Shown here: one piece after another, positions 593 to 36,910 of the stretch
Numbering within the stretch: the first letter of the stretch is position 1
Layout: every line of letters starts with the position of its first letter
Origin: Deltaproteobacteria bacterium
GTDB lineage: Bacteria > UBA10199 > 2-02-FULL-44-16
Assembly: GCA_016202335.1 (NCBI GenBank)
Contig: JACQOX010000075.1
Coordinates: forward strand, 1 to 41,061
DNA: 41,061 bases
Direction of reading: 5' to 3'
Position numbers and translations under genes: made by a program
The notes under the pieces: model-generated
Seen by the model: only the letters and a program-made list of their open reading frames with translations
Database searches by the model: none
What the model was told of the DNA's origin: nothing

Positions 593-647
593 CCATCCTT
601 AGCAACAAATTTCTGTGCGAGCCGATAATGCAAATGAAGAGGAAAAT

Positions 648-2567
648 ATGGTCACCATGTACCCAATTATGGCTCGAGCGAGTTTTGCAAACATGCCGGG
701 AGCTGTTGCCAATCTCTATGAGCGCTCTCCACTTCTGCAAGGCATTGCAGATGTCTATCTCGGAACCCCTCAATTGCTCACAAGCCATTTGTTGGAATTA
801 AGACCGGCTATTGTAGCCGAACAAAGGCAGGCGCGTGGGGTGTGTGCTGAAGTATTGCCAGGGTATGCGTTAAGCACCCTCGTTCATGCACTGGAAGCTG
901 GGGGGAGATTAGCAGGAGGAGTGCAGACTTATGTTCGTTTGGCGAGTGCGCGCGATCTGTATGATGCGTCCTTGCTGTTGCAGGAAAGCATTACAGCAGA
1001 AGATTTGTCGACACCAAAGGCTTTGGTGGATCGTTTGAATGTGCTTCGATATGACATAGCTCGAGAACAGGGGGGAGAACACTATGCGCTTGCTACTCTG
1101 GTGCAAGCGCTGGAAGCGGGAGGGCAGTTAGCGATGGGAATACAATTCTATGAACGGTTAGCGAATGCCCATGATTTATATGATGCGTCGTTCTTGTTGC
1201 AGGAAAGCATCGGCGTAGAAGATCTATCGACCCCAAAAGCCTTGGTAGATCGCTTGGCAGCGATACGGCATTATGTGTCTCGTGAGCTAGGGAAAGAACG
1301 TTATGCACTCGATACACTGGTACAGGCGCTGGAAGCGGGAGGGAGGCTGACGAATGAAGCGCAGCCCTATAAACGTTTGGCCAGTGCGCGTGATTTATAC
1401 GATAAGTCGCTCTTGTTGCAGAAAAATATTTCAGAAGAGGACGTGTCGACACCCAAGGCCTTAGTGAATCGTTTGGCTGTTCTCCGAAATGACATCGCTC
1501 GAGAATTAGGCGAAGATCATTATGCGTTGGGGACTCTTATGCAGGCGCTGGAAGCGGGAGGAAGGTTGGTGAGGGGAGTGCAAACCCACTATCGTTTAGC
1601 AGGTGCGCGAGATCGATATGATAGATCCTTGTTATTGCAGAGAAGTGTTTCGGAAGAAGATTTATCGACGCCCAAGTCCTTAGTGGATCGTTTAACTGTC
1701 CTTCGGCGTTATGTTGTTCGAGAGTTGGGCGAAGAGCGCTATGCACTCACGACACTCGTACAAGCGCTTGAAGCTGGGGGTAGGTTAGTGGGTGGAGTGC
1801 AATCCTATCAACGTCTAGCAGGTGCGCGTGACCTGTATGACCGCTCATCAACGTTGCAGACAATGTCTGCTGAATTGCTTGAAGATGATCATCTCTTGAT
1901 GCGTTGGCTCTTGATGGTGCGTGATAGAGTGAAGTTTGAAAATGGGTTGCGCATGGGTAAATCTCTTGCGGTCGCGTTTGAAGAAGCCATGAATGAACCC
2001 TACGCCTTGAAGACAATCACTAATGCACTATTTGCCGCCGGTGTCATAGCCGTGAAGAAAATGCAGAAGCTGAATTTTAGTATTTCAGGTCCTTTAGAAT
2101 ATGCACTGGAGCGCCGGGGAATAATTGCCGCAGAAGTAGACAAGATGAGAAAGGGAGAAAGAGGAGCGTTTCAACGTGTGGACCATACTCCCTTTACATA
2201 TCTCGCAGATTCCACTCGGCCATTAAGTGAATTTTATATCAGAAATATCCTTAAATGGGCGGTGTGGTTGGAGAGCAATCCGGAGATCGTGACACGCAGC
2301 CTTTACCGGGCCGACGAACTCGTTTTTCTCTCACTGGGCAGTGAAGTTGGTGAAAGCATGATGCATGCTGCAATTCCTGCTCTTAATGATCGGCTGCAAC
2401 GTGCTATGTCGCAAACGGTGAATGAGCCGATGTTCGCTCGTGAACTTGTGGTAGGAATGATGCGAGAGACGGTTGAATATTATGCCGATTCTGCGAGACT
2501 CCCTGCATCAATTGAGGAGCAAACGTATGTGAAACGCCTGCAACGTCTTGTGACGTGGAATTCATAG
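648..2567 (+). CDS. Tandem-repeat protein of unknown function: five 73-aa repeats plus a ~210-aa unique C-terminal domain.
   Basis: The ORF is 615-2567. GTG 615 lacks a Shine-Dalgarno sequence, while ATG 648 is preceded by AGAGGA (638-643). The repeat consensus is YALxTLVQALEAGGRLxxxxQxxxRLAxARDLYDxSLLLQxxxxxEDLSTPKALVDRLxxLRxxxxRELGExx. I recognise no known family. Confidence 0.75.
   Translation: MVTMYPIMARASFANMPGAVANLYERSPLLQGIADVYLGTPQLLTSHLLELRPAIVAEQRQARGVCAEVLPGYALSTLVHALEAGGRLAGGVQTYVRLASARDLYDASLLLQESITAEDLSTPKALVDRLNVLRYDIAREQGGEHYALATLVQALEAGGQLAMGIQFYERLANAHDLYDASFLLQESIGVEDLSTPKALVDRLAAIRHYVSRELGKERYALDTLVQALEAGGRLTNEAQPYKRLASARDLYDKSLLLQKNISEEDVSTPKALVNRLAVLRNDIARELGEDHYALGTLMQALEAGGRLVRGVQTHYRLAGARDRYDRSLLLQRSVSEEDLSTPKSLVDRLTVLRRYVVRELGEERYALTTLVQALEAGGRLVGGVQSYQRLAGARDLYDRSSTLQTMSAELLEDDHLLMRWLLMVRDRVKFENGLRMGKSLAVAFEEAMNEPYALKTITNALFAAGVIAVKKMQKLNFSISGPLEYALERRGIIAAEVDKMRKGERGAFQRVDHTPFTYLADSTRPLSEFYIRNILKWAVWLESNPEIVTRSLYRADELVFLSLGSEVGESMMHAAIPALNDRLQRAMSQTVNEPMFARELVVGMMRETVEYYADSARLPASIEEQTYVKRLQRLVTWNS
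864..1958 (+). repeat. Coding tandem repeat, 5 x 219 bp (73 codons). A sixth degenerate unit starts at 2001.
   Basis: The unit starts (TAT GCx, encoding YAL) fall at 864, 1083, 1302, 1521 and 1740, exactly 219 nt apart. Units look roughly 70-75% identical at DNA level by eye. The second half of the fifth unit diverges. Confidence 0.95.
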
Positions 2568-2612
2568 TCCAAGACGTATCGCGATAAATTTGCTTCGGTT
2601 CAATCCTTTTCA

Positions 2613-2641
2613 TTGTCAGCACTTCCGGCTTGAGTTAAAAT
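2613..2641 (+). promoter_or_regulatory. Sigma70-like promoter TTGTCA-N17-TAAAAT placed to give a leaderless transcript of the beta-CASP gene.
   Basis: TTGTCA is at 2613-2618, followed by a 17-nt spacer and TAAAAT at 2636-2641. The ATG at 2648 is 7 nt past the -10 hexamer. There is no Shine-Dalgarno sequence between them. Confidence 0.45.
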
Positions 2642-2647
2642 GACATC

Positions 2648-4000
2648 ATGAAAATAACGTTTCTGGGTGCTGCAGGAACGGTGACAGGATCCAAGTTCCT
2701 CCTTGAAACCGGCAAACAACGGATTTTGATCGACGCCGGCCTCTTCCAGGGATTCAAAGAACTCCGCGTACACAACTGGCAAGACCTTCCATTCGATCCC
2801 CGATCGCTCGATGCCGTCATCATCACCCATGCTCATATCGACCACACCGGCTATCTCCCAGCGCTTTGTAAGCATGGCTTCATCGGTCCCATTTACTCCA
2901 CGGCGGCGACGAAAGAGCTGTGTGAAATCCTCCTGCCGGACGCGGGATACTTGCAGGAAGAAGAAGCCCGCTTTGCGAACAAGCATGGTTTCAGCAAACA
3001 TCAGCCAGCCCTCCCGCTGTTTACGGTGGAGGATGCTCGACATGCTTTGGCGCTTTTTGAACAGCTTCCTTTTCACGCGTGGCATGAGCTTGGGAACAAG
3101 CTCTCTTTTCAGTTTACGCCGGCAGGACACCTGCTCGGAGCGGCGTGTATTCATCTCAAAACGGATCAGGGGAAGCTCGTGGTGAGTGGGGACATCGGAC
3201 GTTCGAACGATCTGCTGATCAAACCACCGGAGCCAGTTCGTCAGGCAGACTATCTGCTTTTAGAATCCACGTATGGAAACAAGGATCACCAAAATCAGGA
3301 TCCGCTGCAGGCCTTTGAAGACATCATTCATCAGGCGTGGGACCGAAAGGGTGTCATCTTGATTCCGGCTTTTGCCGTGGGTCGCGTCCAAGCGGTGCTG
3401 CACATTCTCCATCGGCTGAAACGGGAAGGGCGTATTCCGGAAATTCCCATTTATCTCGACAGCCCCATGGCGATTCTCGCCACAGAAGTTTTTTGTCGCT
3501 ACACCCACGAACACCGTTTGACCGCGGATGAAGCGCGGGCGCTGGCCAAAACGGCCAAGGCCATCGAATCGCAAGAAGAATCCAAGATGCTCTCGCAGTC
3601 CAAGGGGCCCAAACTGATTGTCTCCGCGAGCGGCATGGCCACCGGTGGGCGCGTGTTGCATCATCTCAAGTGGTTTGCGCCAGACCCTCAGAACACCATT
3701 CTGTTTGTCGGTTTTCAATCGCCGGGAACGCGCGGCGAAGCCATGGTCAATGGGGCGACCAAAATCAGGGTTCACGGGCAAGATGTTTCGGTTCGGGCCA
3801 AGGTGGTTCACCTGGAAAATCTTTCGGCCCACGCCGACCGCAACGACATTGTTCGCTGGCTGGCCCAGATGAAGCGCCCTCAGAAGGTAATCCTTGTGCA
3901 CGGCGAACCCTCGGCGCTTTTAGGCATGCAAGCACATTTGATGGAAACCCTGCGATGGCCAAGTGTCATTCCGAAATATGGAGAGACCATTCAGTTCTAG
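2648..4000 (+). CDS. MBL-fold metallo-hydrolase of the beta-CASP family (RNA-metabolising ribonuclease-like).
   Basis: The N-terminus is ITFLGAAGTVTGSK. The HxHxDH motif (THAHIDHTG) is present. The ~450-aa length and the C-terminal SAHAD / LVHGE motifs are typical of beta-CASP RNases. Confidence 0.9.
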   Translation: MKITFLGAAGTVTGSKFLLETGKQRILIDAGLFQGFKELRVHNWQDLPFDPRSLDAVIITHAHIDHTGYLPALCKHGFIGPIYSTAATKELCEILLPDAGYLQEEEARFANKHGFSKHQPALPLFTVEDARHALALFEQLPFHAWHELGNKLSFQFTPAGHLLGAACIHLKTDQGKLVVSGDIGRSNDLLIKPPEPVRQADYLLLESTYGNKDHQNQDPLQAFEDIIHQAWDRKGVILIPAFAVGRVQAVLHILHRLKREGRIPEIPIYLDSPMAILATEVFCRYTHEHRLTADEARALAKTAKAIESQEESKMLSQSKGPKLIVSASGMATGGRVLHHLKWFAPDPQNTILFVGFQSPGTRGEAMVNGATKIRVHGQDVSVRAKVVHLENLSAHADRNDIVRWLAQMKRPQKVILVHGEPSALLGMQAHLMETLRWPSVIPKYGETIQF

Positions 4001-9958: not shown

Positions 9959-10897
9959 ATGACAGTGTCACTTTTGACCCAAGCCCAGCACGGAAATATC
10001 AGAGCCTTAAGCCAACTCATCACCGCCATCGAATCCCACGACAAAGACTCTCTGAATTTGCATTCGGCGGTGTATGACGCCCGCAAAGGCGCCCCTATTT
10101 TGGGGATCACGGGCCCTCCAGGAGCAGGAAAATCCAGTCTCACCGACCGGTTGATCCACCGTTACCGCAAACAGGGGGAACGCGTGGGTATCGTGGCCAT
10201 CGACCCATCGAGCCATTTCACCGGCGGCGCTATACTGGGGGATCGCATCCGCATGATGTCGCATGCCAGCGACCCGGGCGTGTTCATCCGCTCGCTGGGC
10301 ACGCGTGGATCGCACGGCGGACTTTCCCGGGCGACGCAGGACATCGTCGCCTGCTTGGACGCCGCTGGCTTTGACCGGATTATCGTGGAAACCGTGGGCG
10401 TGGGGCAGACGGAGCTCGACATCGCCCGAATTGCCGATACGACACTTATCGTGCTCGTCCCTGAAGCTGGAGACGTCGTGCAAACCATGAAGGCCGGCCT
10501 GTTTGAAGTCGCCGACCTGTTTGTCATCAATAAATCAGATCGCGGTGGCGGGGAAAACCTCTCCACGGCGCTTCAGGGGCAGATGGCCCTTGATGAGAAA
10601 GCCTGGCAGGTACCGGTTCTGCTTGCTTCGGCGCTTAAGGATGAGGGAATAGAAGGAATCCTCGAGCAAATCGAAGCCCACCGCGCCTTTGCCAGAGACA
10701 ATCATGATTATCACACCATGCGCGAGATGCTTCGTCGTGAATTGTTTTTTGATCTCTTGAGCGATGAAATTGCTTCTCGAATGCGGCAAAAAATTGCTCA
10801 CGATAAACACTTGTCGCAACTCCTTGAACACTATGTCCATGAGGGTCGAAATCCCTACGGACTTCTGGCAAAACTTTTGGAGAGCATTGTCCCATGA
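9959..10897 (+). CDS. meaB: Methylmalonyl-CoA mutase-associated G3E GTPase MeaB/ArgK.
   Basis: The P-loop is GITGPPGAGKSSL. Other matching motifs are VETVGVGQ and NKSD, plus the N-terminal RALSQLITAIES helix. The stop overlaps the mutS start as ATGA (10894-10897). Confidence 0.9.
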   Translation: MTVSLLTQAQHGNIRALSQLITAIESHDKDSLNLHSAVYDARKGAPILGITGPPGAGKSSLTDRLIHRYRKQGERVGIVAIDPSSHFTGGAILGDRIRMMSHASDPGVFIRSLGTRGSHGGLSRATQDIVACLDAAGFDRIIVETVGVGQTELDIARIADTTLIVLVPEAGDVVQTMKAGLFEVADLFVINKSDRGGGENLSTALQGQMALDEKAWQVPVLLASALKDEGIEGILEQIEAHRAFARDNHDYHTMREMLRRELFFDLLSDEIASRMRQKIAHDKHLSQLLEHYVHEGRNPYGLLAKLLESIVP

Positions 10898-13800
10898 GCA
10901 CCGCTTTGGCCTCTGACGTCACGCCGATGATGAAGCAGTATTTGAGCATCAAGGAAGACCATCGCGATGCCATTCTGCTGTTTCGACTGGGCGATTTTTA
11001 TGAGATGTTTTTTGACGACGCGGTTGAAGCCTCCAAGATTCTCGATATTGCGCTGACGACCAGGAACCGAAGTGAAGCTCATCAGGTGCCGCTCTGTGGG
11101 GTGCCGTATCATTCCATCCAGCCGTACATCACGAAACTCCTTGAAGCCGGAAAGCGCATCGCCATCTGCGATCAGGTGGAAGATCCCGCTACGGCCAAAG
11201 GTGTGGTGAAGCGCGAAGTCGTGCGCATCATTACTCCCGGCGTGGTCCTTGACGGCGAACACCTCGACGCCAAATCGCATAATTTTCTGGCGGCGGTTAT
11301 TCCCCAGGAAAATTCGTTTGGCTTGGCTTTTGTCGACGTGTCCACAGGTTGGTTTGAAGCTGGAGAAGTGCAGAGTGCGGAAAATCTGCTGGAAGAGATC
11401 GCCCGGCGAAGTCCAAAGGAATTGGTGTTCAATCGGCCTTTGAAGGCTTCACTCAAAGAGACGATTGCTCGATATTTTCCCAAGATGGTGTTTACGGAAA
11501 CTGGTAGGGGCGACCGGCCGGTCGCCCCTACACAATTCGTTGCTCCTACACAATACACTGAAGCCGCCGCGCTTGCCTGGGACTACCTCCGATCCACCCA
11601 GAAGAGCGACCTCCCGCACATCACGTCGATCCAGCCTCTTTCTGGCAGCACCTGTATGCGCCTGGACGAAGCGACGAAGCGCAATCTCGAGCTCGTGGAA
11701 TCCATGCTGAGTGGTGAACGAAGCTATACGCTGCTGGAACATCTGGATCGCACGAAGACATCGATGGGGGCGCGGGCCTTGCGCACCTGGATTCTGCATC
11801 CGCTCCTGGACGAGGCGGTCATCAATGCCCGACTGAATGCCGTTCACAGCCTGATCGAATCTTCGGTAGCCGACGCCATGCGTGAGGCCTTGAAAGAAGT
11901 GTATGACCTTGAACGGATCATGAGCCGCATCGCCATGAAAAATGCGAGCCCACGCGATGTGGTGCATCTTTCCCTGTCGCTCAGCCATATTCCTTCCATT
12001 AAACAAGGGATCGCCAGCTCTCATGGTTTATTGGAAACGCTCGGTCATGAACTCGACGAATTGAGCGATCTTCGTTCGATCATCGCCTCAACGCTTGTTG
12101 AAGAGCCGCCGTTCTCGCCGCGCGATGGAGGCATGATCCGAAATGGCATCTCCACTGACCTCGACGAACTCCGAACCATCTCCCATCACGGCAAAGATTT
12201 CATCGCTCGCTTGGAAGCTCAGGAAAAGGAATCGACCGGGATTGGATCGCTGAAAGTTCGCTATAACAAGGTGTTTGGGTATTACATCGAAGTGACACAT
12301 GCGCATCGCGATAAAATTCCGCTGCATTACATCCGCAAACAGACGCTGGTGAACGCTGAGCGCTACATCACGCCTGAGCTTAAAGAATACGAAGAAAAAG
12401 TCTTGGGCAGCGAAGAGAAATCAAAGGCTTTGGAGTATCATCTCTTTACCGCGCTTCGCGATCAGGTGGCAGAGGCCTTACCGCGCGTGATGCGCACGGC
12501 CAAGGCCGTGGCAGAGCTCGATGCGCTGCTCTCACTTGCGGAAATTGCTTCGGAGTTTGGCTACGTGCGGCCCGACGTGATGCAACAAGATCAACTCGAC
12601 ATCATCGAAGGGAGGCATCCCATCGTGGAGCGGCTCATTCCTGATGAACGATTTGTCCCGAACGACGTCTGCCTGAACGACGCTTCTGGCAGGATGATGG
12701 TGATCACCGGTCCCAACATGTCCGGAAAATCAACGGTCATGCGCCAGACCGCGCTCATCGTGCTCATGGCGCAGATCGGTTCGTTTGTCCCCGCAAAGCG
12801 CGCTGTCATCGGCATCGTGGACCGCATTTTCACCCGCGTTGGTGCTTCCGACGCGTTGGCGCTCGGGAAATCGACGTTCATGGTGGAGATGTCGGAGACG
12901 GCCTTGATTCTCAACCAAGCGACCGAGCGAAGCCTCGTCATTGTCGATGAAATTGGTCGCGGAACCTCGACCTTTGATGGCCTGGCCATCGCCTGGGCAG
13001 TGGCGGAAGACCTTCACGATCGGGTGAAGGCCCGAACGCTTTTTGCAACCCACTATCATGAGCTTACCGACTTGGCGCTCACCAAACCCATGATGAAAAA
13101 TGTTCACATTGCCGTGAAGGAAGTCGACGGGAAGATTGTTTTTCTGCGGAAACTTATTCCCGGGGGAACTTCCCGAAGTTATGGCATCCATGTCGCGAAG
13201 CTCGCCGGCATTCCTGCGGCGGTGATTGATCGCGCGGAGGAAGTCTTGCAAAATCTGGAGCAGGGCGAATTCGACGAAAAAGGTGAGGCGAAGATCGCAC
13301 ATCGCCATAAAAAACTTTCCTCGCAGTTGGGGTTGTTTCTCGCAAAATCAATTTTTCTTTGCATCGTTGGATTCTCGACGCTCGCATCGGCCGAGACAAT
13401 GACTGAAAAGGAACTCTTTGAGCGGGCCAGTCAATTGACCTTCACGGCGCAGAAGACCCAGTCGCAACCCGATGCGCTGGAAGCCATCGATGTGCTCAAT
13501 CAATTTCACATCCGTTATCCCAAATCCAAGCTCGCCGATGATGCACTGTATAGCATCGCCGGGCTTCGCGATGCACCGCTCAAACAAAAGGACAAGGCGG
13601 TTGCCGCGCTCACCGCACTCATCAAACGCTATCCACAGGAAGATAAGGTGACCTCGGCGAAAGCGCTGCTCGCCAAACTCCAAGGCAATGCGACCAAGCC
13701 AAAACCAATTGAAAAACATCCTGCGATCGTCGCAAAAAAATCGGTTGCAGTGGTGGAACCAACGAAAAAAACAATCCCACAGAAGCCATTTGTCCCGAGC

Positions 13801-14934
13801 GGTTCTTACAACCTTGAAGATATCAAGATCTCAGGCAACAACGAGTCAGCGGAACTCATGCTCGACTTCGATCGATCGGTGGCTTTGACGACGACGTATA
13901 TTCCCATGGGGAAACGCACGGGTTCTCCAGCACATATGATTCTAGATATCCCGCATGCGTTTAAAGCTGAGCATTTGCCCAAGAAGATGAACTTTGATTC
14001 ACCGCACGTTGCGTCTGTAAAAATAAAACGGTCTTGGTTTACGAACCGCCTCATCTGCGATCTGGAACTTAAATCAGGCGTTAAATATTCGGTCGAGCAT
14101 CGTCAGAACGATGTCGTGATTTTACTCTCCCAGAAAAAGGGAAATGCTGTTACTACCGCCTCCGAACACAAAGAAGCTCCGACACCTCTTCCCAAACCGT
14201 CGTTTTTTGAAACCAAGCCAGGAACTGCGTTGCATGTAAATGACCGGAAGCTTTTGATCGTCATCGATCCAGGACATGGTGGGGAGGACACAGGTGCCGT
14301 TGGAAAACAGGGGGTCAAAGAAAAGGATGTTGCTCTCACGATCGCCAAGCGGCTCGCCAGGGAACTCAAAACGAATCTTGGGGCGAATGTCATTTTGACG
14401 CGCACGAGCGATGCCACGCTTTCGCTGGAGGAGCGTAACCGCATTGCCAATGAACATGAGGCCGACCTGTTCTTGTCCATTCACGCCAATGCATCGACCG
14501 ACCGAAAGGCCCATGGGCTGCAGACGTATTTTCTGAACGTCGCTACGGACAAGGCTTCCGAAAAGCTGGCGTCGCGAGAAAATGCTTCGGCCAAAAAACC
14601 CCTGCCGGAAGTCGAACACATCCTCTCCAACATGATGCAGACCTATCAGGCAGACGAATCGCAGCTCCTTGCCGCTGATGTGCAAAAATCCATGGTCTCA
14701 GGGGTTTCAAAACACTACGACGGTGTCCGTGATTTAAAAGTTCAATCGGCATTGTTCTATGTGCTGGTGGGGGCGAAGTGTCCGAGCATTCTGATTGAAA
14801 GCTCGTTTATCTCGAACCCCCAGGAAGAGCGGCGGCTCAAGAACGGCTATTATCAAGAGCACCTGGCCAAAGCCATTACTCGCGGGATCAAAAAATACGT
14901 GACGACGCGTGACGCCCGTGCGGCGTCTTTGTGA
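10894..14934 (+). CDS. mutS: DNA mismatch repair protein MutS (residues 1-815), continuing in frame without a stop into a signal-peptide/TPR-like/AMIN/amidase_3 module.
   Basis: The MutS N-terminus is TPMMKQYLSIKEDHRDAILLFRLGDFYEMF. Walker A is GPNMSGKST (about 12707-12733) and DEIGRGTST follows. A clamp-binding-type QLGLF motif is at 13324-13338. It is followed by LAKSIFLCIVGFSTLASA, then an amidase_3 core (VIDPGHGGEDTGA...SIHANA). The ORF track shows no stop between them. Confidence 0.85.
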   Translation: MSTALASDVTPMMKQYLSIKEDHRDAILLFRLGDFYEMFFDDAVEASKILDIALTTRNRSEAHQVPLCGVPYHSIQPYITKLLEAGKRIAICDQVEDPATAKGVVKREVVRIITPGVVLDGEHLDAKSHNFLAAVIPQENSFGLAFVDVSTGWFEAGEVQSAENLLEEIARRSPKELVFNRPLKASLKETIARYFPKMVFTETGRGDRPVAPTQFVAPTQYTEAAALAWDYLRSTQKSDLPHITSIQPLSGSTCMRLDEATKRNLELVESMLSGERSYTLLEHLDRTKTSMGARALRTWILHPLLDEAVINARLNAVHSLIESSVADAMREALKEVYDLERIMSRIAMKNASPRDVVHLSLSLSHIPSIKQGIASSHGLLETLGHELDELSDLRSIIASTLVEEPPFSPRDGGMIRNGISTDLDELRTISHHGKDFIARLEAQEKESTGIGSLKVRYNKVFGYYIEVTHAHRDKIPLHYIRKQTLVNAERYITPELKEYEEKVLGSEEKSKALEYHLFTALRDQVAEALPRVMRTAKAVAELDALLSLAEIASEFGYVRPDVMQQDQLDIIEGRHPIVERLIPDERFVPNDVCLNDASGRMMVITGPNMSGKSTVMRQTALIVLMAQIGSFVPAKRAVIGIVDRIFTRVGASDALALGKSTFMVEMSETALILNQATERSLVIVDEIGRGTSTFDGLAIAWAVAEDLHDRVKARTLFATHYHELTDLALTKPMMKNVHIAVKEVDGKIVFLRKLIPGGTSRSYGIHVAKLAGIPAAVIDRAEEVLQNLEQGEFDEKGEAKIAHRHKKLSSQLGLFLAKSIFLCIVGFSTLASAETMTEKELFERASQLTFTAQKTQSQPDALEAIDVLNQFHIRYPKSKLADDALYSIAGLRDAPLKQKDKAVAALTALIKRYPQEDKVTSAKALLAKLQGNATKPKPIEKHPAIVAKKSVAVVEPTKKTIPQKPFVPSGSYNLEDIKISGNNESAELMLDFDRSVALTTTYIPMGKRTGSPAHMILDIPHAFKAEHLPKKMNFDSPHVASVKIKRSWFTNRLICDLELKSGVKYSVEHRQNDVVILLSQKKGNAVTTASEHKEAPTPLPKPSFFETKPGTALHVNDRKLLIVIDPGHGGEDTGAVGKQGVKEKDVALTIAKRLARELKTNLGANVILTRTSDATLSLEERNRIANEHEADLFLSIHANASTDRKAHGLQTYFLNVATDKASEKLASRENASAKKPLPEVEHILSNMMQTYQADESQLLAADVQKSMVSGVSKHYDGVRDLKVQSALFYVLVGAKCPSILIESSFISNPQEERRLKNGYYQEHLAKAITRGIKKYVTTRDARAASL
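11504..11531. repeat. 28-bp perfect GC-rich palindrome (REP-like) inside the mutS reading frame.
   Basis: The sequence is GTAGGGGCGACCGG|CCGGTCGCCCCTAC. It encodes GRGDRPVAPT in frame. An imperfect 18-nt tandem duplication overlaps it and continues downstream (11524-11541 and 11542-11559, 14/18 identical), encoding APTQFV and APTQYT. Confidence 0.9.
13333..14934 (+). CDS. Possible independently translated N-acetylmuramoyl-L-alanine amidase (AmiC-like, with TPR/YbgF-like and AMIN domains) starting at an internal TTG.
   Basis: A TTG start at 13333 (or 13327) would give MFLAKSIFLCIVGFSTLASA|E, a textbook Sec signal peptide. No clear Shine-Dalgarno sequence lies upstream, so this model is tentative. 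The AMIN-like region is about 13800-14130 and amidase_3 about 14250-14930. Confidence 0.4.
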   Translation: MFLAKSIFLCIVGFSTLASAETMTEKELFERASQLTFTAQKTQSQPDALEAIDVLNQFHIRYPKSKLADDALYSIAGLRDAPLKQKDKAVAALTALIKRYPQEDKVTSAKALLAKLQGNATKPKPIEKHPAIVAKKSVAVVEPTKKTIPQKPFVPSGSYNLEDIKISGNNESAELMLDFDRSVALTTTYIPMGKRTGSPAHMILDIPHAFKAEHLPKKMNFDSPHVASVKIKRSWFTNRLICDLELKSGVKYSVEHRQNDVVILLSQKKGNAVTTASEHKEAPTPLPKPSFFETKPGTALHVNDRKLLIVIDPGHGGEDTGAVGKQGVKEKDVALTIAKRLARELKTNLGANVILTRTSDATLSLEERNRIANEHEADLFLSIHANASTDRKAHGLQTYFLNVATDKASEKLASRENASAKKPLPEVEHILSNMMQTYQADESQLLAADVQKSMVSGVSKHYDGVRDLKVQSALFYVLVGAKCPSILIESSFISNPQEERRLKNGYYQEHLAKAITRGIKKYVTTRDARAASL

Positions 14935-15193: not shown

Positions 15194-15506
15194 AGAAAAA
15201 ATCTGCAAGGACCAGGCGACAACGGAAGGCTACTGTCGCCTGCATTTTTTAAAGCACTGGAAAACCATTCGCGACGACAAGAAAAAGAAGGCCGCCAAAA
15301 AGTTGAATGCCTATGTCGATTACATGCTGCGTTCCAACCCCGACAATGTGGTTGAAGCCATCCGCAGCAATATCCAAAAAGGCGAATTTAAAGATCAACC
15401 CACGCCCGATGCTGCCGACGAACCGACCTTCATCTTCGAAGACGCTGGCGCCCAAGACGAAATTCGGACGCTTTTAAAGGAATTAAAGATCGGGAAAGAG
15501 TATTAA
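15171..15506 (+). CDS. Hypothetical small protein with an N-terminal Cys/His cluster (C-x4-C-x10-C-x2-H).
   Basis: The N-terminus is MAKIRICKEKICKDQATTEGYCRLHF, followed by a Lys-rich stretch and an acidic tail. It overlaps the previous ORF by 23 nt. I recognise no family. Confidence 0.6.
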   Translation: MAKIRICKEKICKDQATTEGYCRLHFLKHWKTIRDDKKKKAAKKLNAYVDYMLRSNPDNVVEAIRSNIQKGEFKDQPTPDAADEPTFIFEDAGAQDEIRTLLKELKIGKEY

Positions 15507-17527
15507 ACCTTCCTTCGCATCGGCAATTTCATCAAACAATAACCGATAATCCCAAAGGTTGCGAATGCCAGCCAGCCGCCGGCGGTTTTGAGGAGTGCCG
15601 GTTCTTCGACGCCGAAGAAGTAGGCCGACAGCGAAGGGATGCCCACCAAGGTGAGCGCGGCCAGGGCCACACCCGTCAAGGCTTCGCCGGCGATGAGGCC
15701 CGAAGCGATGAGAGTTCCGCGGTTTTCGATAATCAGCCGTTCCTCGGGAGCAGCCTGCTTTCGATTCATCCAGCGATCCACCAACCACTTCATGACGCCA
15801 CCCACAAAGATGGCGAACGTTGTTTCAAAGGGAAGGTACATGCCGACAGCGATGAGCATGGGCGAGGGAGCTTCGATGAGGAGGAGCCCCAGTGAAAAGA
15901 ACATGCCGAAGACGACGAGTGCCCACGGCATGTCGCCGCCGACGATGCCTGTGGCGAGCTGCGCCATGAGACCAGCCTGAGGTGCCGGCAGTTTGAGATC
16001 GCCGATCCCGAGTCCTCCAGCGGCGATGTTGCCTTCGTGCAGAATGATCATCGGGAAGACCAGGAAAAACGAAACGACGATGACGCCGATGATTTCCGCG
16101 AGTTCCATCTTCCACGGTGTTCCACCGATGAGCTGGCCGATCTTTAAATCCTGAATCATGTCGCCGGACAGACAAGCGGCGCAGCAGACGATCGCGGCAA
16201 CACCCAAAACTGCAGCCACGCCAGGAAGGCCGGTCAGCCCAATGGCGATCATGACGAGGGCGGCGATGATGAGTGCGGACAGCGTGAGGCCAGAGACTGG
16301 TTGATTGGAATTGCCGACGATGCCGACGAGCCATCCGCCTACGGCTGAGAAAAGAAACCCGGTGATCACCATGATGATGGCGGTGACGATGGCTCCGCCA
16401 ATGCTTTGGGTAAAGTGGTGATAAACAAAGATCATGGGAATCAGCAAAAGTGCGGAGGCAAGAAAGATTCGACGGGGGTTTAAATCTCGTTCAAGTCGAC
16501 TTGGAGCGACGTTCGAAGCAGCGGAAGTCTTCTTCGAAAAAACACCGGAGAAGGATTTCTTCAGTGAAGATCTTAACCCCCACAGAGTTTTAAAAGATCC
16601 CACAAGCATGGCACCGACAGCGATGGGGCGGATGTGGTTATACCATGACGAATAGGCCAGCGTGGACCAGTCGGCAGGTTGGCCGTTGACAGCCAAACGC
16701 GTAGAGAGATCAGGATCCAAAAAAATGGCCAAGGGGATGAAGACCAGCCAGGCCAAGACACCGCCGGCCAGATTGATCGACGAATATTTGGGGCCGATGA
16801 TGTAGCCGACGCTGATGAGCGCGGGAGAGACGAGAGGAGTTTGGAAGAGCATCATGCCTTGGTGAGCGACATTTCCCAGGGCCTCTTTGCTGGTATTAAA
16901 GTGGTGGATCACGGATTTGGGAAATCCGATGATGAATTCCCTGGTTTCCTGAATGATGGGGAAGCCGCTGGTGTTTTTGAAAAGTTCGATGATGACGGCA
17001 ATGCCCATAGAACCGAAGACCAGAGACGCGCCTGTTTCTCCCTTCTGGCCGGCCTTCACAATTTCAAAGCAGGCATGACCTTCAGGAAAGGGAAGATCAG
17101 CGTCCACGACAAGTGTGCGGCGGAGTAAAATCACGAAGAACGTCCCCAGCAGTCCGCCAACGAGCAAGATGATCGTTGTTTCCCAATAGTGAAAATGGGT
17201 CCACAGTTTTTGCCCGCCGAGGGATGCCATTAAGAAAGCAGGAATCGTAAAAATGGCACCTGCCACCAAGGCTTCGCCAACGGAAGCTGTGGTGCGGGCG
17301 ATATTTTGTTCGAGGATCGATCCCCTGAGAAAGGGAATGCGAAAGGCAGCGATGGCGATGACCGCGGCGGGGAAGGATGCGGCAATGGTCATTCCTGCCT
17401 TGAGCCCCAAATAGGCATTGGCTGCCCCGAGGACCACGGCCATGATGAGTCCCAGCAAAATAGCTTTGACTGTGAGCTCGCGCTCTTGGCTGTGTTCATC
17501 AACGTAGGGTTTTACGTGGTTGGACAT
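15503..17527 (-). CDS. OPT-family oligopeptide transporter.
   Basis: It is 674 aa and polytopic. The N-terminus (RELTVKAILLGLIMAVVLGAANAYLGLKAGMTIAASFPAAV) and overall layout are typical of bacterial OPT transporters. It is a paralog of the adjacent gene. Confidence 0.9.
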   Translation of the reverse strand: MSNHVKPYVDEHSQERELTVKAILLGLIMAVVLGAANAYLGLKAGMTIAASFPAAVIAIAAFRIPFLRGSILEQNIARTTASVGEALVAGAIFTIPAFLMASLGGQKLWTHFHYWETTIILLVGGLLGTFFVILLRRTLVVDADLPFPEGHACFEIVKAGQKGETGASLVFGSMGIAVIIELFKNTSGFPIIQETREFIIGFPKSVIHHFNTSKEALGNVAHQGMMLFQTPLVSPALISVGYIIGPKYSSINLAGGVLAWLVFIPLAIFLDPDLSTRLAVNGQPADWSTLAYSSWYNHIRPIAVGAMLVGSFKTLWGLRSSLKKSFSGVFSKKTSAASNVAPSRLERDLNPRRIFLASALLLIPMIFVYHHFTQSIGGAIVTAIIMVITGFLFSAVGGWLVGIVGNSNQPVSGLTLSALIIAALVMIAIGLTGLPGVAAVLGVAAIVCCAACLSGDMIQDLKIGQLIGGTPWKMELAEIIGVIVVSFFLVFPMIILHEGNIAAGGLGIGDLKLPAPQAGLMAQLATGIVGGDMPWALVVFGMFFSLGLLLIEAPSPMLIAVGMYLPFETTFAIFVGGVMKWLVDRWMNRKQAAPEERLIIENRGTLIASGLIAGEALTGVALAALTLVGIPSLSAYFFGVEEPALLKTAGGWLAFATFGIIGYCLMKLPMRRKV

Positions 17528-17553
17528 GTTCGCCTCTTCGAGAAATGTGCATG

Positions 17554-17584
17554 AAAAAAGGGCCAGCGATGTACTGGCCCTTTT
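17554..17584 (-). terminator. Rho-independent terminator between the two OPT genes.
   Basis: On the - strand the stem is GGGCCAG, the loop is tacatcg, and the closing arm is CTGGCCC followed by TTTTTT. The stem spans 17560-17580 and the T-tract is the complement of A17554-17559. The + strand also has TTTT after the stem. Confidence 0.7.
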
Positions 17585-17609
17585 GGTCGATCATTCACAT
17601 GGCCAGTGT

Positions 17610-19547
17610 TTAGTCCTCAACCTTCTTCACCGCAGCCTTAAAGAGGAATCCGCACAGCACAGCGAAGACGATGACGGGGAGGAGTCCATCCAGTAATGGG
17701 CCGTAGGTTTCCCCCAGGTGATAACGTTCACCGACATTGAGGAGTGTGGCGTAAGCACCTTCATTGATCCCCGCAAGCACCGCGATGGCTATGCCGGCCA
17801 AGGAACCGCCAGCCACGAGCCCGGTGGAGTAAAGCATACCGGAGCTGATTTCGCCTTCTTCCTGTTTCTTTTTCGTCACTGCGCTGACCAGGGCATTGAC
17901 CATACCGCCGATGAAGATCGGCATGGTGGTGGCCAGAGGGAGGTAAGCCCCGACCGCGACAGGCAGCGAACGCACGCCGCAGAGTTCAATGACCACGGAA
18001 ATGAGGGCTCCCACAAACACCAGTCCCCAAGGCAATTCTTGAGCCAGCAGACCTTTGATTAGGGTTGCCATGAGGGTTGCCTGAGGGGCCGCCAATTTTT
18101 CAGAACCGATGGGGCCGTAGGGCGAGTTGTGCAACATGAGCAGGGTCAGACCAACCACGATGACGGAAGTGACGACGCCGATGAGAAGACCAAGCTGCTG
18201 TTTGTACGGGGTTGCGCCGACGATGTAGCCTGTTTTGAGATCTTGACTGGTGGCGCCGCCGTTTGCAGAGGCGATGCAGACGATGGCACCGACGAAGAGT
18301 GCCAAGGCTTGATAGGATTCGCCCGTCCAGCCGAGTGACACGAAAATCAAACAGGTGGCCATGATCGTGGCGATGGTCATGCCTGAAATTGGATTGGAGG
18401 ATGAACCGATGATGCCCACGATGCGGCTCGAAACCGTGACAAAGAAGAAACCAAAGATGACGATCAGGGCAGACATGAGGATGCGAGAAGTAAACTCACC
18501 GGGGAGTTGCGGCAAGAATGCAAAGCCGACGGCCAAGGCGAGGGAGCCGATCAAAACGGTTTTCATCGGCATGTCGCGTTCCGTACGGCTTTGTTTGCCG
18601 TCGGCCGCTGAACCTTTGAAGCTCTTGAAGCTACCGGCGAACGAAGAGATGATCGTCGGGATGGTGCGAATCAAGGTGAAGAGACCACCGGCGGCAACAG
18701 CACCTGCGCCGATGTAACGGACGTAACCGCGGTAAATTTCCGTGACCGACATTTCAGAAATCAATTTTTCCTTCCAACCCGGAAGGAGTACAGTTTGCAA
18801 TTGATCGCCAAAGAGGGTGATCAAGGGGATGAGCACCATCCAGGAGAGTACGGAACCGGCAACGATGCGGGAAGCGCCCAGAGGGCCGATGATGTACCCT
18901 ACGCCGAGGTATTCAGGAGTGATTTCAGAATTGATGGTGGCATTGGGAAACTGGCTTGTTCTTGCCGTGGTGAAAGACGGTGTGTCTTTCCACAGGCCAA
19001 ACACGCTCATCATGAGTTTGTAGGCGATGGAGATCCAGAGTCCGGAGAAGACCATTTTGGCGAGATTTCCGCCCTTTTCGCCGGCGACGAGAACTTCAGC
19101 GCAGGCCGTGCCTTCCGGGTAAGGAAGGGTTCCGTGTTCCTGGACGATCAAGGTTCGGCGAAGCGGGATCATGAACAACACGCCGAGGATACCGCCGGCG
19201 AGCGCCAAGGTCAGGATGTGAAAATATTGAAAGTATTGGTCGGCATTGGTGAGAAACGTGAGCGCTGGGACCGTGAAAACGACACCAGCGGCGATGGACT
19301 CACCGGCGGAGCCGATCGTTTGAACAATGTTGTTTTCAAGGATAGTTGAACGGCCAATTTTTTTGAAGACGGCGATGGCCAGCACTGCGATGGGAATCGA
19401 GGCCGATACCGTGAGGCCGGCGCGGAGTGCCAGATACACGGTTGAGGCGCCAAAGATGACGCCAAAGATGATGCCAAGGATGATTGCTTTAAACGAAAAC
19501 TCTGCCAACGACTCTTCTGCTGCTACGAACGGTTTAAAGTTTGCCAT
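17610..19547 (-). CDS. OPT-family oligopeptide transporter (second, upstream paralog).
   Basis: ATG 19547 is preceded by AAGGAGG with 6-nt spacing. The ORF-track start at 19613 has no ribosome-binding site. The sequence is collinear with the neighbouring OPT (FSFKAIILGIIFGVIFGASTVYLALRAGLTVSASIP). Confidence 0.9.
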   Translation of the reverse strand: MANFKPFVAAEESLAEFSFKAIILGIIFGVIFGASTVYLALRAGLTVSASIPIAVLAIAVFKKIGRSTILENNIVQTIGSAGESIAAGVVFTVPALTFLTNADQYFQYFHILTLALAGGILGVLFMIPLRRTLIVQEHGTLPYPEGTACAEVLVAGEKGGNLAKMVFSGLWISIAYKLMMSVFGLWKDTPSFTTARTSQFPNATINSEITPEYLGVGYIIGPLGASRIVAGSVLSWMVLIPLITLFGDQLQTVLLPGWKEKLISEMSVTEIYRGYVRYIGAGAVAAGGLFTLIRTIPTIISSFAGSFKSFKGSAADGKQSRTERDMPMKTVLIGSLALAVGFAFLPQLPGEFTSRILMSALIVIFGFFFVTVSSRIVGIIGSSSNPISGMTIATIMATCLIFVSLGWTGESYQALALFVGAIVCIASANGGATSQDLKTGYIVGATPYKQQLGLLIGVVTSVIVVGLTLLMLHNSPYGPIGSEKLAAPQATLMATLIKGLLAQELPWGLVFVGALISVVIELCGVRSLPVAVGAYLPLATTMPIFIGGMVNALVSAVTKKKQEEGEISSGMLYSTGLVAGGSLAGIAIAVLAGINEGAYATLLNVGERYHLGETYGPLLDGLLPVIVFAVLCGFLFKAAVKKVED

Positions 19548-19671
19548 GCCGCGCCTCCTTAAAATTTTTCTGTAAATGTCGGAACCAAGATAAAATTGCA
19601 ACAGATTTAACATGAAAGAGTTCTTCTAAGTTGCCTTGACGAAAGAGCATCTCCTCTGGTAGCCGCCCGGC

Positions 19672-29709: not shown

Positions 29710-32700
29710 ATGCACACACCTTTCACGGCAGGCCTCCTGTCCACGTTTTTGCTGTTGACGTCGTCGCTTTACGCCCAGAATTTTTCCCTTCCTATTCCGA
29801 TAGGCTCACAGCAAAGCTCCAAAAGCGGGTTTCCCGCCACTCACGTCGATGCGACGCATCTCAAATTTTTCAAGCACCCAGAGGCTCCTCGCGGCAGCGA
29901 GAATTTTGTTTCGGAAGATGTGACGATTGATGGACGTCGTTTCTTGGTCGACGATGTCGTCGCGACGCCTGGTATTTTTGAAGGCATGACGCAGGTCAAT
30001 GCCGGAAACGCGATGCTGGATGGTTTGGGCAATCGCCTCGGTCTGCCCTTAAATCCCCTCCATGGATTCTGTCCGGAAAGATTGGTGATTCAAGGGGCCA
30101 CCAGTAATCGATTGGAACTCACTCTGGATTGCCAGATTGCAGATGGGAGCACGAGTCGGGAGTTGCAGGTCGCTGATGTTCGCATGTTCAATGCTTTGGC
30201 GTCGCCATCGGAATTTGAGCGCCTCTTTGGAACAACCGAGCCTCTGGTTGCCGCGGTGATGGGCAGTGCCGAGCAGACGCTGACCCCTTACGGCACAGAT
30301 CTTTATCCGGCGACTATTCAGTCCGCAATTTTTTCTTGGCCATTCTTGGGGCCGACTCAAGCCTATCAAGATGTCGTGGCTTATGACCTTGCCGATGTCG
30401 GGCAGGGGATCATCACTGCGGCCTATGACCCAGTAAAGCTGCTCATGAATATGCAGGCTGAGCTGTCGGTGCGAACGGCGACGCAAAATCTTCAAGTGCG
30501 CGGCCAGCTCCCACAGCAAGAACTTCCTTTTCTTTCCCCGCTCGCTTTTTTTCGCAAGGATGACTATCCGTCGCGTGGCCGCATGCGGCTCGCCGGATAT
30601 TCGAGCCTTCAATTCCCATCGGTTTTGAATCGTGAAAATGCAGCGACCTTGCTGGCGCAGAATTTTAATCCCATTGCCGTGCAGCCGATGAAATTTACCA
30701 AATCAGCGACTGGCACAGGAGCGCCTCAACCCGATGAGGGATTCGCTGTGGTCAACCAGGCGACGCTTCTCAATTTGGATGATATTTTGATGTACGATGG
30801 TCTGCCGTATGTCGATCCCACGGATCATCGCGCCCATTCATGGGCTGAATATCTGGGCACGCGCGATGCCTCTGGACAGTTCCAACCTCTCGATGCGACA
30901 ACCATGCCTCACCGAACTTTGGCCTATACCATCTTCTGGCGACGCCATGCCGAATGGGCCAGCCGACCGACGGTTGAATCCTATAACCCCAATGCTGTTT
31001 TCGGCCCGTTTGTATTTGCCTTGGTCGGACCTGGAGTTTTTGACGCTGACGTCATTGTCGATCAACCGATCACTACTTCTGGGGCAACGACGTCTTCTCC
31101 TTCCGTTGAATCATTGATCGTTCCTTCGGGTGAAGTGGCTGCCGACGGGAAAACGTATGTGTATAAGATTGAACCGATCAATGCCGATCGGCTGTGGTGG
31201 CGGTTTAATCCCAAAACGCCCGTGGCGGCCGGATTACCGGGTGTGCAGACGCCATTTGTGTTGCCGACGGCTTATGCCATCGAGTCTCCCGCTGGGTTTG
31301 TTCCCTATCACGTCAAAAGTTTTGATGTTGACCGGGACGGTTGTGGAGATATCGCGCTCACCTTTAGGGGGAGCGAAACAACTCCATTGCGGACGTCACG
31401 CGCATTTCAAAATAACGTCGGTGATCACGTCGTCTTTCAGGTGAGTTCATCGGATCCTCGGATGTTTGCCTCTGTCGTTCAGATTCATCGCGGGAAATTC
31501 CGTAACGGCCGTTGTGAGATCGAAGCCACAGCAGCGGAGCGTTTTATTCCTCACCCCGGAGCGCAGATTGCTGCGATTGCGATCGAGGACATTGATGGCA
31601 ATGGGACAAAGGACCTCCTTGTCGGGGATCTGATGCCGAGAAAAATCCCTGAGGGTGAACGCGGTGCGGGGGAATACACCGGTTATGCATATTTGTATGC
31701 TGATGCCTCGCCACTCTCTGTTCCCAAATGGATTCGGGTTGGATTCAAGACTTCAAATCATGAAATCACCGATCTGCGCGCTGTCCTCGATGGCAGCGAT
31801 GCGGACGGCGTTCTTGGAGTTGCAAGCCTGGACGTCACATTTGAGGCAGGACAGGGGGCGAACATCGCCAGCATCAATGGTGCTCCCTTGGCGCTCCCAG
31901 CTATGGGCTGTCCATCTTCACAAAATGCTGAGGTGGCGAGTTTCCCTGAAATTGCCTGGAGTGTCATGCAGGGGGTTCAATCGGCGCAAAAAGGCCTGAC
32001 GCCTTTCTTCCCTGGAGCGACAGGCTTTATACCTCAGCGCTGCGCTCACCTGAATGCTTGCGCCATCAATAATGCATCCCTAGCGGTGAATGGCTGGAAC
32101 CTTCCTTTTTGGGAGAATGAGCCGTGTTGCAATCCCTGTGGTGGGACATCGCCTTTGGCCACGTGGCAGCATAATCAATGTCGCGACATTCTCTGCGGAA
32201 ACTGGTCAATCTTGAACCCCACGGCCACTCTGGCGCCTTATCCGGAACTCTGCGAAGCGATGGACATCTCATGCCGAGGGCTTACTGGTGTGTGGCCGGT
32301 GGTTACCGGAACCACCATGTGCCAGCTTTCCGGGGCGTCATTCTTGCCGGCGAATCACGCGTGTTGCAATGCGGATCCTTGCAATCAAGCCTGTCAACAA
32401 TATCTGGATGAAGAAAATCGCTGCCTTGCCGGAAGTTCGCAACACGATCAACATCAGGGGATTTGCAGCTCCAGTATCCGGCGTGGATGTCGTGTTTCTT
32501 CCCGAGATGAAATCAAGGAAGAGACGTGGGCTTATCAACCTGATCGGATCGTAGATCCACGCGAACGGGGGCATGCCATTACCTCGATGTCTGAGCTCAA
32601 ACCGGCTGCAACGGGGTACGTCAATCAGAATTCCTTGAAGCCACCACTTGGCTCTTCATTCATTCTTGGGACGCAAAATGAAGATATTGCGGTGATCGCC

Positions 32701-36148: not shown

Positions 36149-36220
36149 GGCGGCGTAGCAAAGGGGTAATGCAGCGGTCTGCAAAACCGCTATACACCGG
36201 TTCGACTCCGGTCGCCGCCT
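36149..36220 (+). tRNA. tRNA-Cys (anticodon GCA).
   Basis: I folded a manual cloverleaf. The acceptor stem is GGCGGCG/CGCCGCC. The anticodon stem is GCGGT/ACCGC with loop CTGCAAA. The T arm is ACCGG-TTCGACT-CCGGT and the discriminator is T. CCA is not encoded. Confidence 0.9.
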
Positions 36221-36241
36221 CAAATTTTTTCGGAGGGTGAA

Positions 36242-36767: not shown

Positions 36768-36853
36768 GCCCGGATGATGGAATTGGTAGACATACAGGAC
36801 TTAAAATCCTGAGGGGAGAAATCCCCGTGCCGGTTCGAGTCCGGCTCCGGGCA
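36768..36853 (+). tRNA. tRNA-Leu (anticodon TAA), class II with a long variable arm.
   Basis: The acceptor stem is GCCCGGA/TCCGGGC. The anticodon stem is CAGGA/TCCTG with loop CTTAAAA. The variable arm is GGGGAGAAATCCCC. The T arm is GCCGG-TTCGAGT-CCGGC and the discriminator is A. Confidence 0.92.
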
Positions 36854-36910
36854 CAAAATTAGGCTTCTCAAACAGCAATGGGGGAGATACGCCCGAATCA
36901 AGGAGGAGCT

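Follow-up and report, generated by a model that had tools for sequence, protein, structure and literature searches.

Several described helical repeats form the background against which the protein examined here can be read. ARM repeats bind peptides via conserved polar ladders with variable pockets, and TALE proteins, comprising Xanthomonas/Ralstonia effectors and TALE-likes, consist of near-identical helical units of 33-35 amino acids (aa) that differ in a two-residue repeat-variable diresidue (RVD). PPR proteins are built from tandem helical hairpins of 35 aa, and their residue Val2 sandwiches bases in the structures of designer PPRs with RNA (PMC4837458). Pfam PF14442, or Bd3614_N, is the N-terminal domain of Bdellovibrio and chlorophyte TadA-like deaminases and accompanies a predicted RNA deaminase (PMC3239186). 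Here, we analysed a stretch of 41,061 nucleotides (the window), a 41-kb contig (JACQOX010000075.1) of a metagenome-assembled genome (MAG) labelled 'Deltaproteobacteria bacterium', in which gene HY540_03000 encodes a protein with five tandem 73-aa units. This repeat protein represents a new, rare and unannotated alpha-solenoid family that carries no database name.

A repeat search on the DNA recovered five copies, spaced by exactly 219 nt, at the very positions reported by the initial annotation of this sequence (Table 1), and the translated units agree with that annotation letter for letter. All five match the hidden Markov model (HMM) of the unit at domain E-values of 2e-44 to 4e-21, far beyond chance. 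Pairwise identity between them is 63-81% in protein and only 67-71% in DNA, and because of the latter Tandem Repeats Finder reported no repeat in the gene. Nei-Gojobori comparisons between units 1-4 gave proportions of synonymous differences (pS) of 0.59-0.72, which is saturated, and ratios of nonsynonymous to synonymous substitution rates (dN/dS) of 0.09-0.19. The open reading frame (ORF) is thus a real coding gene under purifying selection, and its units are old duplications kept alike by protein-level selection rather than by recent DNA homogenisation. In every unit the constraint is strong, at about 70% of its positions. Identity of this degree, held by pure protein-level selection after synonymous saturation, is rare among helical repeats, and its persistence suggests that each unit performs the same specific job. 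In one homolog (P0004), by comparison, the units are 94-99% identical in DNA, reflecting recent amplification.

The array follows a pattern shared across the family. A half unit precedes it in the window protein and in all homologs, and 34 family members have orthologous terminal units. The sixth partial unit proposed in the initial annotation corresponds to a genuine segment, YALKTITNALFAAG, which the unit HMM also picks up; it is a cap helix that forms part of the C-terminal module. Family members start with an optional N-terminal domain of ~100 aa, continue with the half unit and 3-9 units of 72-82 aa, and end with a terminal unit (DDExLMRxLLxxRDRI), a C-terminal module of ~210 aa (...KWGRWFLxDPxVxxRSIY...WNxDAL) and often a Pro/Ser/Ala-rich acidic tail, which is disordered in many homologs. 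The unit signature is YALxTLVxALxAGGR...RLAxARDLYDRSPxLQ...TPxxLxxxLxxLRPxIxxEQ. The window protein has the half unit, the full units, the terminal unit and the C-terminal module, and it lacks the N-terminal domain and the acidic tail. Variation in unit number between homologs, which the initial annotation had raised, is borne out by the range of 3-9 and arises by unit duplication and recombination. Most members are acidic, with an isoelectric point (pI) of about 5-6; that of the window array is 5.9.

The family is sparsely represented. A word-indexed search returned 18 relatives of 571-1086 aa, and when 1.84 billion proteins were searched exhaustively with an HMMER profile, only 105 representatives reached E<=1e-3. 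Two family loci were found in a scan of 185,579 species genomes, with one genome per species, and no family match was found in plasmid and phage collections. No consistent match to Pfam, NCBIfam or PADLOC emerged for the window protein, 13 members and 19 longer relatives, and the absence of a named family for the repeat or the C-terminal domain, as first annotated, holds for these three resources and for PDB sequences. Several individual matches were considered and set aside. Among PADLOC defence models only AbiEii matched (16.6 bits), with no significant stretch; the Pfam matches HRDC, Rsa3 and AbiEii likewise lacked one and differed from member to member. NCBIfam PQLLE_fam (17.6 bits against a cut-off of 80) matched the window member alone and had no literature, PDB 2rdc_A (E 0.0014 against units 3-5) disappeared with the family profile and was treated as chance, and a similarity to MIT in the last ~65 residues was not significant (E 0.14). 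A literature search with the family motif strings returned nothing relevant.

More distant relatives carry a unit variant of 64-66 aa (NSLxYLIxALxxAGKLPEG...SAAAYDFYLNSxLLQ...WLxEHRDELG). These shorter units are internal modules of giant proteins of about 1,600-4,400 aa with GT2, GH77 and metallophosphatase domains. Five such proteins (P0069, P0075, P0093, P0083 and P0105), of 1,759-4,413 aa, combine arrays of 64-66-aa units with GT2, GH77, metallophosphatase or sigma70_r4 domains, and one giant relative comes from a Candidatus Omnitrophota MAG. Pfam searches of the 19 longer or giant relatives returned unrelated enzymatic domains only, with no shared family. Separately, members P0010 and P0011 lie on separate large contigs of the same sample. 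Five distant members (P0015-P0019, 887-954 aa) are basic (pI about 9.5), carry 2-3 units and differ in architecture from the main group: their N-terminal ~330 aa are Gly/Ala-rich, hydrophobic and membrane-like, and a C-terminal segment (...NGExFSRxxLxxIxRWGxWxW...) appears by eye to be duplicated.

AlphaFold2 (AF2), run with a 13-sequence alignment, modelled the repeat protein as all-alpha with a mean predicted local distance difference test (pLDDT) of 84, rising to ~90 or higher across the array, and a predicted template-modelling score (pTM) of 0.65. Each unit comprises helix H1 (3-12), a loop (13-19), H2 (20-35), a short h3, sometimes a one-turn helix, and a 19-residue H4 (51-68), so that the original description of about two helical hairpins per unit is fair. 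The C-terminal module, modelled with 29 sequences, reached a pLDDT of 91.8 and a pTM of 0.83. Foldseek searches with the whole model found nothing at E<=1e-3 in the PDB or in BFVD. The top PDB match was 6xr1, a designed right-handed alpha/alpha toroid (E 6.4e-3), followed by ARM/HEAT proteins (importins, beta-catenin and CAND1) at E 0.1-1 and template-modelling (TM) scores of 0.1-0.2. For the C-terminal module, no fold match to the PDB was found (best E 0.84) and no PDB sequence fell below E 0.1; the homologs' N-terminal domain likewise has no relative in the PDB. All three modules, the N-terminal domain of the homologs, the repeat unit and the C-terminal module, are dark.

The model resembles ARM/HEAT proteins and designed alpha/alpha solenoids in being an all-alpha solenoid, and these supply its top Foldseek matches. 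It differs in that all of those matches exceed E 1e-3 with TM scores below 0.2, no Pfam HEAT or ARM model matches, and the identity between the window units is far higher. Foldseek did not place the protein within the ARM/HEAT fold. A separate lead came from Bd3614_N, to which a synthetic fourfold unit consensus aligned with 38.6 bits (unit 1-34 on profile 40-74). This is an unverified lead: no natural member among 13 reaches E 0.01, and synthetic tandem-consensus scans of Pfam returned many clearly spurious matches, so that the Bd3614_N and PPR matches obtained in this way are leads only.

We tentatively favour, as something short of an even chance, the explanation that the protein is an alpha-solenoid scaffold or binding rod with a constant C-terminal module that works independently of the neighbouring beta-CASP RNase. 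The half unit, the five 73-aa units of four to five helices and the cap would stack on one another and so form an uninterrupted helical rod or superhelix. This cytoplasmic solenoid would be joined to the conserved, all-helical C-terminal module of ~210 aa, which may be a constant docking or oligomerisation part. Every unit would show the same conserved polar residues (R15, Q21, R25, R30, D31, Y33, D34, S36, Q40, R62 and E68), and the array could thereby offer a periodic binding or scaffolding surface whose length or valency is set by the number of units. Its ligand would more probably be a protein, peptide or other periodic partner than a nucleic acid. We favour a generic binding or scaffold module because the 64-66-aa units sit in giant proteins with unrelated enzymatic domains, an arrangement typical of such modules. 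The confident all-alpha model, the protein-level constraint on the units, the helical periodicity of the variation, the variable unit number, the recent amplification in P0004, the nearest Foldseek matches and the lack of a conserved neighbour also count in its favour. Two points weigh on the other side. Neither a ligand or partner nor a fold or family relative with known function was identified, and the identity between units is unusually high for HEAT, ARM or TPR scaffolds, which hints at a more specific job for each unit.

The distribution of variation within the unit was assessed in alignments of 66 units from 13 proteins and later of 209-222 units from 72 proteins. Nearly invariant positions are Y1, L3, T5, L6, A9, L10, A12, G13, G14, R15, Q21, R25, A27, R30, D31, Y33, D34, S36, L39 and Q40, and they alternate sharply in the first 40 positions with the hypervariable positions 4, 8, 11, 17-20, 22, 24 and 28. 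Positions 4, 8 and 11 form the i, i+4, i+7 face of H1, and 17-19 lie in the H1-H2 loop. The initial annotation had placed the variation at positions 4, 17-19 and 22-24 of a fixed helical scaffold. The scaffold is supported, with variation on one H1 face, in the loop after H1 and at the start of H2, and the positions named are among the most variable; positions 8, 11, 20 and 28 are, however, equally so. The restriction itself applies to the first hairpin only, since the second half varies at every exposed position in 66-222 homolog units, leaving the buried H4 positions 54, 58, 62, 65 and 68 conserved. The periodicity of the entropy profile is that of amphipathic helices, and polar i/i+4 pairs covary (Q21-R25 and R30-D34). 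Mutual information between unit positions was dominated by subfamily and linker signal, with no code-like coupling.

Three tests addressed whether the variable positions carry specificity, one of them on the recently amplified units of P0004 described below. Between P0002 and P0003, which are 83% identical, 11 of 44 repeat substitutions fall at the ten hypervariable positions (5.4 expected, p = 0.016), and omega is 0.57 at these positions and 0.33 elsewhere, neither above 1, in this one close ortholog pair. These values show no positive selection at the variable positions. Positions 4, 8 and 11 of the orthologous terminal unit, compared in 34 proteins, have entropies of 2.79, 3.34 and 3.31 bits, and the corresponding values for random internal units are 2.79, 3.27 and 3.09. 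They thus vary just as random internal units do, without the unit-specific conservation known from PPR and PUF proteins whose targets are conserved. Small residues, rather than base-reading ones, predominate at position 4, which holds S (26%), G (22%), A (15%), T (11%) and N (5%), S, G, A and T together making up 74% of units. Given the dN/dS of 0.57, the variability of the terminal unit and the alphabet at position 4, the 'specificity-like' character first ascribed to these positions finds no positive evidence, and the simplest reading is that they form a weakly constrained, sterically limited surface; less simply, they may reflect fast-evolving specificity. As a separate observation on P0002 and P0003 (L011 7656-10406 and L014 371-3139), synonymous divergence (dS) is 0.15 in the array, 0.38 in the N-terminal domain and 0.51 in the C-terminal module. 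This 2.5- to 3.5-fold lower value suggests recombination or conversion, or DNA-level constraint, in the array.

An unlikely alternative is that the protein is a fast-evolving, effector-like factor for interaction with a host, made by uncultivated and possibly predatory or episymbiotic bacteria, in which gain, loss and shuffling of units together with helix-1 substitutions diversify target recognition. Unit number varies, as already described, and several paralogs exist, three of them in tandem in L011 (1321-10406), where proteins of 854, 1243 and 916 aa are encoded head to tail on one contig. Many homologs have the disordered acidic tails, distant relatives sit in giant proteins of the Omnitrophota type, and the differences between P0002 and P0003 are twofold enriched at hypervariable positions. 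In P0004, whose units were recently amplified, codons 1-13 (helix 1) account for 9 of the 12 codons that vary, the others being 24, 41 and 72. Helix 1 may have diversified in this way, but mosaic conversion tracts would give the pattern as well, and the ratios of nonsynonymous to synonymous differences (pN/pS) of 0.5-1.6 are based on very few changes. The remaining evidence points away from such a role: the repeat protein has no signal peptide, no secretion-system gene lies near any examined locus, the variable-site dN/dS does not exceed 1, the plasmid and phage collections yielded no family match, and the window protein has neither the N-terminal domain nor the tail and stands among housekeeping genes.

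It is similarly improbable that the array is a modular, sequence-reading nucleic-acid binder like PPR, PUF or TALE proteins, reading one or a few nucleotides per unit through the hypervariable residues of helix 1 and the loop after it, with Tyr1 stacking between bases. The best PDB sequence matches of the unit profile are consensus designer PPRs (6een at a whole-sequence E of 1.7e-12; 4ozs, 4pjr and 4wsl), and hhalign aligned the unit with the PPR consensus over 25 columns at a probability of 54% (P 1.3e-4). Unit positions 2-26 (aLsTLvqALeAGGRL...y.rl, aligned as aLstLvqALeAggrlrknvqsyerl) resemble the PPR consensus, and both are tandem helical hairpins. In this register, the hypervariable position 4 falls on PPR code position 5 and the invariant Tyr1 on the base-sandwiching Val2 (PMC4837458). 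In a control, eight idealised repeats were scored as nine tandem copies against the unit profile; PPR alone scored, at 44 bits, and the best of 200 shuffled PPR units reached 5.4 bits. This control supports an order-specific similarity. As the PDB contains idealised repeat proteins by the hundred, the best match may be due to chance.

Against this, the designer-PPR match amounts to only 5.6 bits per repeat (domain E ~120), its total being inflated because the nine repeats are identical. No Pfam PPR model (PF01535, PF13041 and related) matched the window protein at E<=1 or any of 13 members at E<=0.01, so that all natural members are missed, and an artificial fourfold consensus of the 64-aa variant scored 17.3 bits, below the cut-off of 25. 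The unit, at 72-82 aa, is not a PPR unit of 35 aa, and its second half (the short helix and the 19-residue helix) has no PPR counterpart. Nor does the alphabet at position 4, S/G/A/T with N in few units, correspond to the N/S/T of PPR code position 5 (position 35 being D/N/S), and the equivalent of the phosphate-binding Lys13 is a conserved Ala. Mutual information between the residue aligned with PPR position 5 and the residue before Y1 was not significant (p = 0.063). The repeat family is bacterial, acidic and rare, its 73-82-aa units being twice the PPR length; its variable positions are not conserved in orthologous units, and no nucleic-acid enzyme is a conserved neighbour. Judged from these alignments, the PPR resemblance may serve as a lead and not as membership.

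The comparison with TALE proteins leads to a similar view. Near-identical helical units that differ at a few positions beside a Gly-Gly loop, in numbers that vary among homologs, are a TALE-like hallmark, and near-identity held by protein-level selection is common to the window units and the TALE type. Unlike TALE repeats, however, the window units are alike at the protein level with saturated synonymous sites and not by DNA-level homogenisation, and they are about twice as long, with ~10 variable positions per unit as against the two-residue RVD. No TALE family was among the Pfam matches, and the unit profile missed a ninefold TALE consensus. A particular form of nucleic-acid recognition, in which these are unrecognised bacterial programmable repeats with a PPR-like first hairpin, stacking by Tyr1, reading by positions 4 and 17-24 and then a spacer hairpin, appears quite unlikely. 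If true, it would join TALE, PUF and PPR as a third or fourth scaffold in nature with a 'code' of its own.

The scaffold or binding rod that we favour would act on its own, and the genomic context agrees with this. The initial annotation correctly described a beta-CASP ribonuclease gene in the same direction, 80 nt downstream, and raised the possibility of a nuclease partnership. Beta-CASP genes occur at none of 10 distinct homolog loci, where the neighbours are unrelated housekeeping genes and no conserved gene partner of the family was found. A downstream alanine racemase is confined to the close P0002/3/7 lineage, and two related genomes encode RNase E/G on the opposite strand at a distance of 1-6 kb. 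Conversely, none of 52 metagenomic loci of beta-CASP relatives (45-66% identical) has a family member within 5 kb; in this test, six-frame ORFs were searched with the unit HMM and the C-terminal HMM, and the positive control recovered beta-CASP in 52/52. By the criterion set in the initial annotation, the proposed linkage is refuted by both sets of loci. That the protein is a targeting or specificity subunit co-transcribed with the ribonuclease, as the co-directional genes, the 80-nt gap and the absence of a terminator-like site between them might suggest, is contradicted by this comparative context and by a promoter-like site within the gap, and is highly improbable. The promoter-like site is a consensus match only and carries no statistical weight, because shuffles of the region contain more such sites than the region itself. 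It ends 6 nt 5' of the beta-CASP ATG, where no Shine-Dalgarno sequence is visible, and the beta-CASP mRNA may be leaderless.

The coordinates of the repeat-protein gene, its parts and its neighbour are collected in Table 1. The ORF of 615-2567 given by the initial annotation is present on the + strand and encodes 650 aa when read from GTG 615. The NCBI start, ATG 648, has an AAGAGGA Shine-Dalgarno-like box 5 nt upstream and is likely to be the start of the gene.

Table 1. Features of the repeat-protein locus, with positions counted from the first nucleotide of the window.
Feature	Position (nt)	Strand	Evidence and remarks
Repeat-protein gene	648..2567	+	ORF opens at GTG 615; probable start ATG 648, 639 aa
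N-terminal half unit	708..830	+	~unit positions 30-70, ANLYERSPLLQGI...LRPAIVAEQRQ; opens the array; unit HMM match
Four full 73-aa units	864..1739 (starts 864, 1083, 1302, 1521)	+	Repeat search, unit HMM, AF2
Fifth, terminal unit	1740..1958	+	First ~40 aa canonical; remainder (DDHLLMRWLLMVRDRV...) is the family-conserved terminal version
C-terminal all-helical module, conserved	1887..2564 (aa 425-650)	+	Alignment, AF2; no PDB relative
Cap helix YALKTITNALFAAG	2001..2042	+	Part of the C-terminal module; picked up by unit HMM
Motif YIRNILKWAVWLESNPEIVTRSLY	2235..2306	+	Within the C-terminal module
Intergenic gap, 80 nt	2568..2647	+	Promoter-like TTGTCA-17-TAAAAT at 2613-2641, 10/12 consensus matches
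Beta-CASP metallo-beta-lactamase RNase	2648..4000	+	Pfam Beta-Casp 1.5e-36, RMMBL 1.3e-17, Lactamase_B; neighbour, outside the feature

Other features of the window were recorded alongside. Directly upstream of the repeat-protein gene, at the contig edge, an ORF of 182 aa (9-557, +) has no Pfam or NCBIfam family and probably represents the C-terminal portion of a gene that is truncated. An ORF of 1346 aa (10894-14934, +) contains a complete MutS (domains I-V, aa 10-789), TPR_6 (883-915) and Amidase_3 (1122-1334), the last being an N-acetylmuramoyl-L-alanine amidase domain; the combination reflects either an unusual fusion or else a merged gene call or assembly artefact. A further ORF of 1552 aa (29710-34368, +) clearly carries a signal peptide at its N terminus (MHTPFTAGLLSTFLLLTSSLYAQ), and Pfam gave no domain for it at E<=1e-4; this ORF was considered as a paralog of the repeat protein and rejected, having no unit match. 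Two tandem paralogs of the OPT oligopeptide transporter (674 and 667 aa) and a POT/PTR2 peptide transporter are encoded at 15503-19613 (-) and 39486-40958 (-), and AT skew is strongly positive over 15-19 kb, coincident with the OPT genes. The window also carries tRNA-Cys(GCA) at 36149-36221 (+) and tRNA-Leu(TAA) at 36768-36854 (+).

The adjacency of the repeat gene and the beta-CASP gene illustrates that tidy neighbours can be a matter of lineage-specific chance. With this family, the catalogue of tandem-repeat proteins gains an alpha-solenoid that is well defined, modelled with confidence and entirely unannotated, and its array is attractive for structural work and as a possible design scaffold. 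If the PPR-like register is true, the family would provide a new programmable binder; if it is not, the array shows that a fixed scaffold with variable positions need not mean a recognition code.

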